Source: Acidimicrobiales bacterium
GTDB lineage: Bacteria; Actinomycetota; Acidimicrobiia; Acidimicrobiales; SZUA-35
Length of the DNA stretch: 64,000 nt
Direction of reading: 5' to 3'
Assembly: GCA_041394285.1 (NCBI GenBank)
Contig: JAWKIL010000013.1
Location: 66,089 to 130,088 of the forward strand
Under the pieces are notes generated by a model that did not search any database, was not told the DNA's origin, and saw only the letters and a list, made by a program, of their open reading frames with translations. Both the position numbers and the translations under genes were made by a program. This document shows positions 12,203 through 20,841 of this stretch, piece by piece (the stretch's first letter is position 1; each line of letters opens with the position of its first letter).

Positions 12203-13108
12203 CTACCCGCGCGCCGGGGCGCCCGGCCCGCCGGACACGAAGCTCAGGGCCTCCCGCAGCGCCGTGAGCAGCTCGGGGGTGGGCCGCTCGAACTGGAAGT
12301 GGTTGCCACCCACCTCCCGGTACCACCAACCGGCCCGGGCCAGCCCCTGCCACCGGCGGGCCCCGTCGTCGCTCACCAGGCTGTCGGCCCGACCTCGGAT
12401 GGTGGCCAGCGGCACGGCAACCGCCGGCACGTCGGTGACCTCGGCCGCGGCGTGGGCGGCGTCGATGTCCACGCCGATCGCCTCGGCCGCCAGCGTGATC
12501 AGCTCGCCGGTGGCGGTCCCCCGGGCGTCGGCCTCCAGCTGGGCCAGCACCTCGTCCCGCGATCGCCGGCCGGTGGTGCCGGGAGCGGCCGACACCGTGA
12601 TCACGCCGGCCACCTCGGCCCGCATGGAGTCGGCCAGCTCGGCCGCCACACTGGCGGCGGTGACGGCCCCCAGGCTCTCACCCAGCAGCACCCAGCGCTG
12701 GTAGGGCTCGGCCTCGATGTGGCGCACGAAGTGGGTCACATGGTCCCGCAGCGACGTGAGGGGCGGTTCGGCGAACCGGATCCCCCGCCCCGGCAGCTCG
12801 AACGTGCGCAACGCCACCGCGTGGTCCAGGTGGCGGCGCAGCTGCTCGAACCGGGCGGCCGACGCCCCCGCACCCGGCAGGCACAACAGCCGGGGCCCGC
12901 CGAAGGCAGCGGAGCTGCCGACCGGGGATGGGGCCCCGGGCGAGACGGGGCCCGGGGGCGCAGCCCCCGCACGATCAGCGGAGCTGCCGACCGGGGATGG
13001 GGCCCCGGGCGAGACGGGGCCCGGGGGCGCAGCCCCCGCAGGATGAGGGGCCGGACCCGGGGGATGGGAGAGCCTGCCCGGGTCCGGCGAGCCGTCCCGC
13101 CCGGTCAT
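12203..13108 (-). CDS. type II thioesterase (alpha/beta hydrolase) with repeat-containing Pro-rich N-terminus
   Basis: ATG at 13108 overlaps the AONS stop (ATGA). LLCLPGAGASAARF, GESLG nucleophile and GGNHFQF His motif, as in PF00975-type thioesterases. Confidence 0.75.
   Translation of the reverse strand: MTGRDGSPDPGRLSHPPGPAPHPAGAAPPGPVSPGAPSPVGSSADRAGAAPPGPVSPGAPSPVGSSAAFGGPRLLCLPGAGASAARFEQLRRHLDHAVALRTFELPGRGIRFAEPPLTSLRDHVTHFVRHIEAEPYQRWVLLGESLGAVTAASVAAELADSMRAEVAGVITVSAAPGTTGRRSRDEVLAQLEADARGTATGELITLAAEAIGVDIDAAHAAAEVTDVPAVAVPLATIRGRADSLVSDDGARRWQGLARAGWWYREVGGNHFQFERPTPELLTALREALSFVSGGPGAPARG
12907..13040. repeat. tandem direct repeat, 2 x 65 nt identical, period 69 nt
   Basis: 12907-12971 is identical to 12976-13040. 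In frame within the thioesterase N-terminus (AAPPGPVSPGAPSPVGSSA x2). Confidence 0.9.
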
Positions 13109-14475
13109 GGCCGGGGACGAAGGGTGACCCCTGCCTCGGCCGCGCACTTGGCCGTGATCTCCGCCGTCCGCAGGAGGTCTTCCTCCAGGTGGGCGGCCGA
13201 CACGAAGAACCGGACCCGGGCCAGGTTCTCCGGCACCACGGGATGGAACAGGCCGTAGGCGATGATCCCGTTCTCCCGCAGCATCGACGACAGCCGCACC
13301 GCCGCCACCGAGCTGCCGGTCATGGCCGGCACCACCGCCGTGCCGTGCGACAGGCCGGTGTCGATCCCCAGGCGGTTCAACTCCCGGGCGAACAGCTCGG
13401 CGTTGCTCCGGGCCCGGGCCGGGAGATCGGGCCGGGCCCGTAGCACCCGCAGTGAGGCCAGCGTGGCCGCCGCCTGGGAGGCCGGCATGGGGGCGCAGTA
13501 CAGCACGGCCCCGGGGGCGAGGTAGCGGACGGCCCGGAGCAGCCCGCGCTCGCCCGTCACGTAGCCTCCCACGCTGGCCAGGGCCTTGGACACCGTGTTC
13601 ATCAGCACGATGTCGGGGTCGGGGGCGACGCCGAAGTGCTCCAGCACCCCCCGCCCGCTGCGGCCGAGCACGCCGAAGGAGTGGGCCTCGTCGATGTAGA
13701 TGTCGCACTCGTGGCGCCGGGCCACCTCGAGGATCTCGGGCAGGCGGGCGATGTCGCCGTCCATGCTGTAGACGCCCTCGATCATGACCAGGCAGATGCT
13801 GCCGCTGCGGCGGTGCCGGGCCAGCATGGCGTCGAGGTGCTCGGGGTCGTTGTGGCGGAAGGCCAGGCGGCGGGCCCCCGACAGCCGGGCTCCGGCGATC
13901 ATCGAGTTGTGCGACAGCTCGTCGTGGATCACCAGATCCTCGGGGCCCACGGCGTAGGCCAGGAAGGCCACGTTGGTGAGGTAGCCGCTCACGAACAGCA
14001 CGGCGTCCTCGGTGCCGTAGATGTCGGCGATCTCCGCTTCCAGCGTGTGGTAGAGGTCGATGTCGCCTCCCACCGAGCGGGTGGCCGACAGCGACGCCCC
14101 GTAGGTGGCCACCGCCTCCCGGGCCGCCTCCCGCAGCTCGGGCAGATCGCCCAGGCCCAGGTAGTCGTACGAGCTGAAGTTCACCATGATCTGGCTGCCC
14201 AGCACCTCGGCCCGGCCGTTGCCGGCCTTGCGCTGGGGCACGAAGTAGCCGCCGCCGTCGAGCCCGTTCTCCCGGGCCAGGTCCAGCAGGGTGGTGATCT
14301 CGGCGATGCCGAGATGGTCCCGCAACCGCCGTAACGGCCGGGCGACCGGCCGACGGGGCGCCGCCGCGCGCCCCGCCAGCAGTCGCCCGGCCAGAGCTGC
14401 CTTCGGATCGGCGGCACCGCCGGCGGGATTGCCGCCGCTGGCGCCCGTGATCCTGTCGCCGTTCATGTCGCTCAC
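13105..14475 (-). CDS. alpha-oxoamine synthase family PLP enzyme (AONS/KBL/SPT-like)
   Basis: VNFSSYDYLGLG, DELSHNSMI, IDEAHSFG and the PLP lysine context NTVSKAL. The GTG start overlaps the PKS stop (GTGA). About 50 aa of extra N-terminus. Confidence 0.9.
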   Translation of the reverse strand: MSDMNGDRITGASGGNPAGGAADPKAALAGRLLAGRAAAPRRPVARPLRRLRDHLGIAEITTLLDLARENGLDGGGYFVPQRKAGNGRAEVLGSQIMVNFSSYDYLGLGDLPELREAAREAVATYGASLSATRSVGGDIDLYHTLEAEIADIYGTEDAVLFVSGYLTNVAFLAYAVGPEDLVIHDELSHNSMIAGARLSGARRLAFRHNDPEHLDAMLARHRRSGSICLVMIEGVYSMDGDIARLPEILEVARRHECDIYIDEAHSFGVLGRSGRGVLEHFGVAPDPDIVLMNTVSKALASVGGYVTGERGLLRAVRYLAPGAVLYCAPMPASQAAATLASLRVLRARPDLPARARSNAELFARELNRLGIDTGLSHGTAVVPAMTGSSVAAVRLSSMLRENGIIAYGLFHPVVPENLARVRFFVSAAHLEEDLLRTAEITAKCAAEAGVTLRPRP

Positions 14476-19541: not shown

Positions 19542-20841
19542 GCGAGGTCACCACCACGTGGGCGTTGGTGCCGCCGTAGCCGAAGGAGTTGACCACGGCC
19601 GTGCTCGGCCGGTCGGGATGGCCGATGCCCAGTGGACCGCTGCGGGCGATCTCCAGCGAGGTCTCGTCCAACCGCAGGGCCGGGTTCAGCTCCTCGAGCC
19701 AGGCCTGGGGTCCCACCTTGCCCGACCGCACGCTGACCACCGCCTTGAGCAGGCCGGCCACCCCGGCCGCGGCCTCGGTGTGGCCGATGCCGGCCTTGAT
19801 CGACCCCAGCACCACCCGCTGGTCGGCCCCGTGGGCGGTCAGCACCTTGCGCATGGCGGACACCTCCAGCGGGTCGCCCACCGGGGTGCCGGTGCCGTGC
19901 GCCTCGAACAGGTCGATGTCGGCGGCGGAGAAGCCGGCGTCGGCGTAGACCTTCAACATGAGGGCGGCCTGGGCCTCGGGATTGGGCACCGTGATGCCGG
20001 GGGTGGCGCCGTCCTGGTTGACCCCGGAGCCGATGATGACGCCGAGGATCTCGTCGTCGTCGGCTTCGGCGTCGGCCAACCGTTTGAGGGCCACCATGCC
20101 GCACCCCTCGCCCCGGCCGTAGCCGTCGGCCGAGGCGTCGAAGCTCTTGGACCGGCCGTCGCGGGCCAGGAACTGGCCCTTGCACAGCATCATGATGGTG
20201 TTGGCCATCAGCATGTAGTTCACGCCGCCGGCGAGGCACAGGTCGGCGTCCCGGGCCTGGAGCGAGCGGCAGGCCATGTGGATGGCCACCAGCGACGACG
20301 AGCAGGCGGTGTCGATGGTGAGGCTGGGGCCCTGCAGGCCGAGGGCGAACGACACCCGGTTCGACAGCATGGTGGCCATGGCGCTGGTGGGCGAGTGGTT
20401 GGTCATCCGCTCCCGCACCGTGAAGTGGGCGTTGCCGGTGAGGTGGTCGAGCATGAAGCCGCCCATGAACACACCGGTGGCCGAGCCGGCGAGAGCGTCG
20501 AAGTCGACCCGGGCGTGGTGCAGGGTGTCCAGCGCCACGTCGAGCACGAGACGCTGCTGGGGGTCCATGATCGACGCCTCCCGGGGGGAGATGCCGAAAA
20601 GGGGGGCGTCGAACTGGCGGAAGTCCCAGCGCAGGAACGAGCCCCGGCGCACGTACATCCGGCCCCGGGCCGACGGATCCTCGGAGTAGAGGGCGTCGAC
20701 GTTCCAGCGGTCCTCCGGCATGGGGCCGACGGCGTCGCCCCCGCGCATGACGAACGCCTCGAACTCGTCGAGGCTGGTCAGATCGGCCGCGTCGCCGGGA
20801 AAACGGCAACCAGCACCTACTACAGCAATGGGCTCGTACAC
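19534..20841 (-). CDS. stand-alone type I PKS ketosynthase
   Basis: EPIAVVGAGCRFPG, active site DTACSSS, and the two His motifs EAHGTGT and GHTEAAAG. The stop overlaps the start of the AT-DH-ER-KR-ACP gene by 8 nt (ATGCCTGA). Start assigned to GTG 20841 (AGGGG 7 nt upstream); the ORF track extends to 21066. Confidence 0.9.
   Translation of the reverse strand: MYEPIAVVGAGCRFPGDAADLTSLDEFEAFVMRGGDAVGPMPEDRWNVDALYSEDPSARGRMYVRRGSFLRWDFRQFDAPLFGISPREASIMDPQQRLVLDVALDTLHHARVDFDALAGSATGVFMGGFMLDHLTGNAHFTVRERMTNHSPTSAMATMLSNRVSFALGLQGPSLTIDTACSSSLVAIHMACRSLQARDADLCLAGGVNYMLMANTIMMLCKGQFLARDGRSKSFDASADGYGRGEGCGMVALKRLADAEADDDEILGVIIGSGVNQDGATPGITVPNPEAQAALMLKVYADAGFSAADIDLFEAHGTGTPVGDPLEVSAMRKVLTAHGADQRVVLGSIKAGIGHTEAAAGVAGLLKAVVSVRSGKVGPQAWLEELNPALRLDETSLEIARSGPLGIGHPDRPSTAVVNSFGYGGTNAHVVVTSHA

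Follow-up and report, generated by a model that had tools for sequence, protein, structure and literature searches.

Here, we have analysed a 64,000-nucleotide stretch of DNA (the window hereafter) from an uncultured Acidimicrobiales bacterium (contig JAWKIL010000013.1), and describe a cassette of four consecutive minus-strand open reading frames (ORFs) at positions 12203-20841 that encode a stand-alone ketosynthase (KS), a 1689-residue polyketide synthase (PKS) protein, an alpha-oxoamine synthase (AONS) and a type II thioesterase-like alpha/beta hydrolase (TE). Judged from its sequence and by analogy, the cassette is probably a compact aminolipid pathway that makes a long-chain base, and we regard it as a split actinobacterial version of the SgaAB sphingoid-base pathway reported from Pseudomonas in 2025 rather than as a new type of system. 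In P. fluorescens MYb115, SgaA, an iterative type I PKS, and SgaB, an alpha-oxoamine synthase (AOS), make C24-C28 sphinganines, and purified SgaB (PfSgaB) behaves as a serine-specific serine palmitoyltransferase that condenses acyl-CoAs of C16-C20 with L-serine and makes practically no use of alanine or glycine (Nat Commun 2025; PMC12134224). As in the SgaAB system, the PKS gene of the window is followed on the same strand by a tightly coupled AONS gene, and the domains run in the order KS-AT-DH-ER-KR-ACP (AT, acyltransferase; DH, dehydratase; ER, enoyl reductase; KR, ketoreductase; ACP, acyl carrier protein). SgaA-like proteins (loci L085-L164) are collinear with the KS and PKS proteins of the window taken together, with identities of 39% in the KS, 36% in the AT and 27% in the ER-KR-ACP region. 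The AONS belongs to the same clade as PfSgaB, to which it is 43-48% identical and with which it shares an N-terminal extension and six signature residues of the pocket.

The original prediction, made from the letters of the window, had envisaged an iteratively used, fully reducing module resembling a fatty acid synthase, whose saturated chain would be off-loaded by the AONS as a sphingoid-like long-chain alpha-amino ketone, and the SgaAB precedent, the clade of the AONS and the collinearity all lend support to this idea. The prediction had also invoked the logic of fungal Fum1/Fum8, next to other distant analogues. The chemistry is indeed the same, but the direct bacterial precedents, namely SgaAB and the long-known RkpA/WcbR-type PKSs, had been missed, and the novelty assigned to the cassette was for this reason too high. 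The logic of the mechanism and its closest bacterial precedent have already been published, and no long-standing question is opened by the cassette.

We searched for homologues in a collection of 5.8 billion proteins and among GTDB species representatives. The closest homologues of the AONS are 60-94% identical and all come from metagenomes or metagenome-assembled genomes (MAGs) labelled Acidimicrobiales or uncultured Actinomycetota; identity then falls to about 52% and next to about 45% in Nocardia. Only four genomes among the GTDB species representatives carry a close relative. Eight further assemblies, all independent and from uncultured Acidimicrobiales-like bacteria, also contain the core of KS, PKS and AONS. 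In every related locus inspected (L001/L002, L003, L004, L005, L006, which is the same as L167, L168, L169 and L084), KS, AT-DH-ER-KR-ACP protein and AONS are encoded in this order, with an ORF of its own for the KS. Recurring as they do in independent assemblies, the gene order, the split point of the KS and the overlap of the KS and PKS genes are not a product of chance, and the comparison of synteny suggested in the original prediction bears out both the gene order and the KS split. The closest relative found from a named organism is a PKS-AONS cluster of Nocardia, for example that of N. transvalensis (L083), with identities of 46-49% in the AONS and 49% in the KS. This uncharacterised locus shares the gene order and the VPYH motif of the AT with the window, but its PKS is a fused protein of 2132 residues, it lacks a TE, and it continues with genes for ASPIC/UnbV, DUF1702 and short-chain dehydrogenase/reductase (SDR) proteins. 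Published homologues of SgaAB are almost all proteobacterial, with a few from Nocardia, Streptomyces, Mumia and Mycobacteroides and none from Acidimicrobiia.

Two side observations were made among the relatives. In L084 (5398-10001), a metagenome contig with a low coverage of 2.17x, AT-DH and ER-KR-ACP are encoded by two ORFs, an extra split that is probably a sequencing frameshift. Genes for a SAM methyltransferase and for an FtsX/ABC exporter come after the AONS gene, and the former may be a sign that products of that lineage are N- or O-methylated. In another group of loci (L028, L029, L031, L038, L046, L048 and L051, at ~10000-12350), an AONS homologue that is not linked to a PKS and is 37-41% identical to that of the window immediately precedes a gene for a FabF-like ketoacyl synthase. 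The hosts are cultured actinobacteria, namely Arthrobacter, Actinoplanes, Micromonospora, Rathayibacter, Actinocrispum and Sanguibacter, and we consider this a different, uncharacterised AONS pairing.

Reading the junctions in the DNA showed how tightly the four genes of the cassette are packed. The KS gene (19534-20841, 435 residues) and the PKS gene (14472-19541) share an 8-nt overlap, ATGCCTGA, in which the ATG of the PKS overlaps the stop codon of the KS. At the next junction, GTGA, the GTG start of the AONS gene (13105-14475, 456 residues) overlaps the PKS stop codon, with an alternative ATG start three codons downstream, and at the last one, ATGA, the start codon of the TE gene (12203-13108, 301 residues) overlaps the AONS stop codon. 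The translational coupling of four minus-strand genes, as originally predicted, was thus confirmed with its coordinates and all three overlaps. The assignments of the proteins also stood: Pfam (PF00109 and PF02801) and motif reading agree on the stand-alone KS, the domains of the AT-DH-psiKR-ER-KR-ACP protein (psiKR, pseudo-ketoreductase) were found by Pfam with a weak ER, the AONS matches PF00155 and keeps the catalytic residues of an enzyme dependent on pyridoxal phosphate (PLP), and the TE matches PF00975 above its cut-off and type II thioesterases in the PDB. All four genes are under purifying selection, with dN/dS of 0.09-0.29 in comparison with L003 and L005. Upstream of the KS, a region of 256 nt on the same strand (20842-21097) reaches to the molybdopterin oxidoreductase gene; it has a lower GC content and looks non-coding, and is presumed to hold the promoter and ribosome-binding site. 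A scan with the sigma-70 consensus found no promoter in the cassette region, and a terminator scan was uninformative.

The stand-alone KS has an intact Cys-His-His catalytic triad in the motifs DTACSSS, HGTGT and GHTE, and its dN/dS is 0.085-0.14. Its reading frame is open up to 21066. The start codon is most likely the GTG at 20841, because an AAAGGGG Shine-Dalgarno-like run lies 7-8 nt before it, the sequence upstream looks non-coding, and the related KS proteins are 436-448 residues long. The C-terminus, GYGGTNAHVVVTSHA followed by the stop codon, is reached right before the point where fused relatives run into the KS-AT linker, and in all related loci the KS ends in the pattern GYGGTNAH(V/A)xV(T/A)xxx and a stop. 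The KS proteins of L003, L005, L167 and L001 are 97, 80, 81 and 70% identical to that of the window and are split at the identical point. Comparison with fused relatives shows that nothing is lost at the break except the flexible connector that leads to the first strand of the KS-AT linker domain, and that the linker domain itself stays at the N-terminus of the AT protein.

Since rpoC in the same window looks frameshifted, we considered whether the split KS could be a frameshift or assembly artefact, and rejected this explanation. Eight further, independent assemblies have the KS split at this very point; six assemblies, the window counted, have the 8-nt overlap, with TGA, TAG or TAA as the stop codon depending on the assembly; and in L005 an in-frame KS stop is followed by an 85-nt spacer in place of the overlap. 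These observations indicate that the split is a conserved trait. The separate KS had been listed among the unusual points of the original prediction, and while its separateness is confirmed, it is not without precedent. Residues 15-378 of the PKS protein align to positions 16-382 of the MbtD profile in NCBIfam, so that the two N-termini coincide, and a division between KS and linker-AT is therefore already known from MbtC/MbtD of mycobactin synthesis. In MbtC/MbtD and in nocobactin NbtC, the KS is on its own polypeptide and the next protein starts at the KS-AT linker. MbtD differs in being a non-iterative, partially reducing module of an assembly line of non-ribosomal peptide synthetases and PKSs for a siderophore, with neither DH nor ER and with no AONS partner.

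By its domain content, the 1689-residue protein is the fully reducing remainder of a module like that of mycocerosic acid synthase (MAS). The MAS-type order KS-AT-DH-psiKR-ER-KR-ACP, including psiKR and ER, is spread over two polypeptides with intact active-site motifs, and MAS is the best match by sequence among solved structures (E 1e-83). The KS and PKS proteins add up to 2124 residues, equal to the MAS chains in the PDB. MAS differs in being a single polypeptide; it uses methylmalonyl-CoA, and its product is handed to the acyltransferase PapA5 and not to a PLP enzyme.

The AT domain lies at 18381-19274 (residues 90-387; PF00698, E 1.6e-68). The original prediction had read PYHS where HAFH or YASH is expected and concluded that the extender could not be called. 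That register was off by one: aligned to HAFH/YASH, the motif is VPYH, to be compared with VPSH in E. coli FabD, YAFH in SgaA-like proteins and VPYH in Nocardia, so that in the window an aromatic residue stands where HAFH has its Phe, within a FabD-like VP-x-H. GHSQG is the signature of methylmalonyl-type ATs. As the AT of the window has GHSAGE instead, keeps the carboxylate-binding Arg (in VRGRL) and a QPxxF...Q segment, and has a VPYH that resembles the VPSH of FabD, the extender can tentatively be called, and is probably malonyl. The DH domain (17391-18203, residues 447-717; PF21089 and PF14765) has its catalytic His in GHTVQGLGPVVP, together with YGGAF and the Asp in DAGLQ. The divergent ER, of the medium-chain dehydrogenase/reductase (MDR) type, lies at 15690-16643 (about residues 967-1284). 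It keeps the nucleotide-binding motif QSGAGALG, further matches ADH_zinc_N_2 and the NCBIfam model quinone_pig3 (E 4.5e-12), and is conserved among relatives to about the same degree as the DH (69/64/40% identity per domain). The KR (15078-15626, residues 1306-1488; PF08659, E 4.7e-49) has GGYGGVG, HAAGVIADG, in which the Asp is kept as in B-type-like KRs, and YAAAN, and the ACP (14580-14777, residues 1589-1654; PF00550) has its phosphopantetheine Ser in LGIDSL; all these domains are encoded on the minus strand. An insertion in the His motif of the DH and the QSGAGALG of the ER are specific to the split-KS clade, and the VPYH of the AT also occurs in Nocardia.

The AONS has the catalytic His/Asp/His/Lys residues (the Lys in TVSK), and equivalents of H138, S185, D210, H213, T241 and K244 of the serine palmitoyltransferase (SPT) of Sphingobacterium (SmSPT) are all there. 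Its dN/dS is 0.15-0.19. It scores below every NCBIfam equivalog cut-off checked: its top match by score is the bioF model (TIGR00858; 314.9 bits, cut-off 426.45), and it likewise falls short for the models of Kbl (KBL; 275 against 460), of SPT (NF047600, 249.9 against 640; NF047599, 244.4 against 500; NF047603, 177.6 against 670), of 5-aminolevulinate synthase (ALAS; 221 against 339) and of the CqsA type (168 against 428). The best match by sequence among solved structures is the promiscuous Thermus AOS/KBL (ThAOS; 244 bits). To place the enzyme, 80 SgaB-like loci were fetched, and neighbour-joining (NJ) trees were built from them, the Acidimicrobiales and Nocardia proteins and 70-odd homologues not linked to a PKS, ALAS included, with E. 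coli BioF and Kbl and the PDB sequences of SmSPT, ThAOS and a KBL as references. Alphaproteobacterial AONS loci (L054, L074 and others) were dropped as Spt references; they are 5-aminolevulinate synthases and were used as ALAS references. The PKS-linked enzymes form one clade with PfSgaB, apart from BioF, Kbl, ALAS and canonical SPT, with a bootstrap of 84 in one NJ run and 98 in the other (the bipartition being present in 200/200 replicates), and within it the support for the split-KS group is 100%. Over 433 residues, which include the N-terminal extension, the AONS of the window has 43% identity to PfSgaB as printed in the supplement of PMC12134224. In the core, its identity is 47.6% to PfSgaB and 49.1% to Nocardia (L083), compared with 38.6% to ThAOS, 36.2% to ALAS, 31.6-35.4% to Kbl, 32.2% to E. 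coli BioF and 29.6% to SmSPT. The phylogenetic check called for in the original prediction thus shows no clustering with BioF.

Pocket positions were mapped from the SmSPT structures (PMC10196870) and are given in SmSPT numbering. Y52, S79, A80, S243, L271 and Y272 are common to the window clade and the SgaB-type enzymes, as opposed to most homologues without a PKS. At position 243, the Ser of the window AONS and SgaB is replaced by Gly in the Kbl and BioF references, which use glycine and alanine, and by Ala in ALAS. By analogy with PfSgaB, L-serine is our best guess for the amino acid substrate, and the AONS is presumed to be the enzyme that releases the chain. Fungal systems offer the same logic at a greater distance: in Fum1/Fum8 (fumonisin) and SphB/SphA (sphingofungin), the chain of a highly reducing PKS is released by an enzyme of the AONS family. 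They are eukaryotic, have sequences that are only remotely similar, and rely on alanine or on chemistry of the aminomalonate type, and although SphA (9pep) is among the PDB matches of the AONS (E 3e-33), the fungal enzymes match far more weakly than the bacterial SgaB clade.

The TE scores 43.1 bits against PF00975 (cut-off 26.4) and has the motifs GESLG (the GxSxG nucleophile) and GGNHF (the C-terminal GxH). The type II thioesterases that match it best in the PDB include 7e3z, 6vap, RifR, 3qmv/3qmw, RedJ-type entries and TesA, and its dN/dS is 0.24-0.29. An N-terminal extension of ~70 residues is rich in Pro and Gly and contains a tandem duplication at 12907-13044 (69 bp, 2.0 copies, 98% match in TRF) that encodes a 23-residue segment. 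Since the orthologues in L003/L004 match over about 20 fewer residues, the duplication appears to be specific to this genome. The gene is confined to the closest subclade: it directly follows the AONS gene in the window, L003, L004 and L005 and stands after an inserted FtsX/ABC pair in L006/L167, and no TE was found within 10 kb in L001, L168, L169, L084 or the Nocardia and Pseudomonas loci. The four-gene cluster of the original prediction is thus conserved in its KS-PKS-AONS core, but the TE is an accessory gene and not part of that core. As its distribution is patchy, the most economical reading is that the TE has an editing role in clearing mis-primed or stalled ACP, and release of the chain by the AONS does not require it.

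From these comparisons, we propose how the cassette could work. The stand-alone KS would dock in trans on the N-terminal KS-AT linker domain of the PKS protein and so rebuild a MAS-like module. The starter would be acetyl or a fatty acyl primer from primary metabolism, the AT would load malonyl units onto the ACP, and repeated cycles of KS, KR, DH and ER would lead to a saturated acyl-S-ACP; that the module is used iteratively is suggested by the lack of further modules and by the precedents of SgaA and MAS. The PLP enzyme would form an external aldimine with its amino acid, most likely L-serine as in PfSgaB, and the aldimine would attack the acyl thioester directly on the ACP, the two condensing by a decarboxylative Claisen reaction. 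A 3-keto long-chain base, that is an alpha-amino ketone of the 3-ketosphinganine type, would thereby be released and the ACP freed, and the TE would most likely rid the ACP of acyl groups that are mis-primed or have stalled. Reduction of the ketone, N-acylation and addition of a head group would either depend on enzymes encoded elsewhere or be absent.

Several observations weigh against this proposal. Identity to SgaA and SgaB is 27-48%. The His motif of the DH is one residue longer than the canonical HxxxGxxxxP, the insertion being conserved across the Acidimicrobiales clade, and the ER is divergent, with an ADH_zinc_N score (28.6 bits) below the Pfam cut-off of 31.8. In the pocket of the AONS, the window clade differs from SgaB at positions 53 (Asp for Asn), 81 (Thr for Ser), 83, 114 (Tyr for His) and 274 (Ala for Val); as serine recognition in SmSPT is largely water-mediated (PMC10196870), we take these differences as weak evidence either way. 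No SgaC-like 3-ketosphinganine reductase, ceramide synthase, phosphopantetheinyl transferase (PPTase) or acyl-activating enzyme was found among the scanned ORFs of the 64-kb window. The neighbours of the related loci vary (MMPL/RND transporters, an ABC/FtsX exporter, a methyltransferase, SRPBCC), and the downstream fate of the product may thus differ by lineage. The window also departs from SgaAB in other respects. SgaA-like proteins are fused and about 2450-2580 residues long, whereas the KS is separate here and the two proteins are together shorter; the AT has VPYH and GHSAGE instead of YAFH and GHSVGE, the inserted residue in the DH is absent from SgaA-like proteins, and the ER motif QSGAGALG stands for HGAAGGVG. 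A type II thioesterase is appended, and the host is an uncultured Acidimicrobiales-like actinobacterium. SgaC, an SDR, is the proposed ketoreductase of the SgaAB pathway (PMC12134224), and no such KDSR-like SDR is encoded near the cassette. A tblastn search of the window with the SgaC-like protein encoded in L085 matched only the KR domain of the PKS itself, and no SDR was found in Pfam scans of the window ORFs.

The same features can be read in other ways. The AONS might use glycine, L-alanine or another amino acid on the same machinery and so make, in place of a sphingoid base, a 1-deoxy-type long-chain amino ketone from which an alkaloid, a pyrazine or some signalling molecule might be derived. 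Such an outcome would suit the five altered pocket positions, the resemblance to the promiscuous Thermus enzyme, and the lack of ketosphinganine reductase or ceramide genes near the cassette, but the enzyme sits in the clade of SgaB and keeps Ser243, Tyr52, Ser79, Leu271 and Tyr272, and we consider the use of another amino acid rather unlikely. It is also improbable that the product, instead of being a free aminolipid of the membrane or a secreted one, anchors or carries a surface polysaccharide, as has long been proposed for the PKS-acyltransferase pairs RkpA/RkpG of Sinorhizobium and WcbR/WcbT of Burkholderia. These systems also pair a monomodular KS-AT-DH-ER-KR-ACP PKS with an AONS-family partner, RkpG and WcbT being AONS-like, but theirs is one PKS polypeptide within clusters for polysaccharide synthesis and export. 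SgaAB homologues are commonest in Burkholderia, Sinorhizobium, Rhizobium and Ensifer, and monomodular PKSs occur in the capsule clusters of those genera (PMC3908369). A glycosyltransferase gene lies about 4.6 kb downstream in L001, and genes for an acyltransferase_3 protein and OpgC lie upstream in L168. On the other hand, no genes for polysaccharide synthesis or export stand beside the cassette in the window, and none are found consistently in the related loci.

The hydrolase gives rise to two further explanations. In one, the PKS is a dedicated fatty acid synthase from which the TE off-loads free acids, and the AONS acts separately on acyl-CoA. The translational coupling of the TE gene to the AONS gene and the ability of PfSgaB to take acyl-CoA surrogates in vitro are compatible with this, but the TE resembles editing-type TEIIs and not chain-releasing TEI domains, no acyl-CoA ligase is encoded nearby, and most relatives with KS, PKS and AONS are without a TE, so that it cannot be the essential release step; we regard this arrangement as quite improbable. 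In the other, the PKS makes pimeloyl-ACP for biotin synthesis, the hydrolase acts like the esterase BioH, and the AONS is a BioF that makes 8-amino-7-oxononanoate. What recalls this route is the bioF model as top-scoring match of the AONS, a faint BioH match of the TE (25.9 bits) and the SAM methyltransferase directly after the AONS in L084. Both scores stay below the cut-offs, that for BioH (cut-off 207) by a wide margin, and the AONS falls in the SgaB clade with 32% identity to E. coli BioF. There are no bioA, bioB, bioC or bioD genes in the window or the related loci, no locus has both the methyltransferase and the hydrolase, most relatives have neither, and the TE matches TEIIs. The biotin route is thus scarcely credible, and we have rejected it. 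A long-chain base made by an SgaAB-type pathway is, in our view, still the best account of the cassette.

The surroundings of the cassette were also inspected. The window is a high-GC (about 73%) segment of an actinobacterial chromosome, with the genes for rpoB, rpoC, L10 and L1 at 54-64 kb. In agreement with the original prediction, no loading domain, fatty acyl-AMP ligase (FAAL) or PPTase was found among the Pfam-scanned ORFs of the window, small ORFs not having been scanned exhaustively. On the minus strand, genes for a MoxR-type AAA ATPase, a CoxE-like VWA protein and a CAAX (Rce1-like) protease occupy 9075-12172, 3' of the TE; the gap is 30 nt with no terminator detected, and this run may be co-transcribed with the cassette. 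These genes and the upstream molybdopterin oxidoreductase gene were rejected as parts of the system, because they are conserved only in the near-identical L003 and L004 and not in L005, L167, L001, L168 or L169. Accessory genes of the related loci (SRPBCC, MMPL, FtsX/ABC, methyltransferase, SDR) have no counterparts in the window except for one weak match of an ABC ATPase query at 44301-44873 (27% identity, E 1e-8), about 31 kb from the cassette.

Elsewhere in the window, two genes for APH-family phosphotransferases on the plus strand (23288-24727 and 25967-27061) flank an ORF of 388 residues (24769-25935) that has no Pfam match; the pair is divergent from the run of the molybdopterin oxidoreductase and PKS genes, and no link to the cassette was found. 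At 48828-51938 on the minus strand, about 30 kb from the cassette, there is a gene for a large MprF-like protein that ends in a lysyl-phosphatidylglycerol synthase domain; this gene, too, is one for the modification of membrane lipids, but nothing evident links it to the cassette. An insertion sequence (IS) element within 3107-5855, with a DDE_Tnp_1/DUF772 transposase gene at 3679-5250 on the minus strand and terminal inverted repeats of 29 nt (3541-3569 and 5262-5290, 86% complementary), interrupts an alpha/beta hydrolase gene whose N-terminal and C-terminal halves lie on the plus strand at 3107-3565 and 5262-5855. In rpoC (54161-58160, minus strand), the ORF at 56172-58160 carries Rpb1 domain 1 and that at 54161-56872 carries domains 2-5, with a switch of frame near 56,835 that is probably an assembly indel in this essential gene and suggests an error-containing assembly from a MAG or long reads.

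We would finally consider what the cassette may mean. Its conserved split exactly at the boundary of KS and linker, with a conserved 8-nt overlap of the two genes, is a natural experiment that could guide those who engineer fully reducing PKSs with condensing domains that are split off or act in trans, and the pathway, if we have read it correctly, would offer a natural model for the docking of a KS onto a linker-AT protein. If the AONS were to use another amino acid, its product would represent a previously undescribed class of aminolipid. It is possible, and we suggest it tentatively, that uncultured Acidimicrobiales-like monoderms known from environmental metagenomes make sphingoid-type or related amino lipids with a split MAS-like PKS whose KS acts in trans. 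Should the proposed chemistry prove right, long-chain bases derived from a PKS, for which Pseudomonas is so far the only demonstrated source, would be made as well by a deep lineage of actinobacteria that is known from metagenomes alone. Their range would then extend from Proteobacteria to a Gram-positive lineage, and more bacteria would be expected to make sphingolipid-like lipids.

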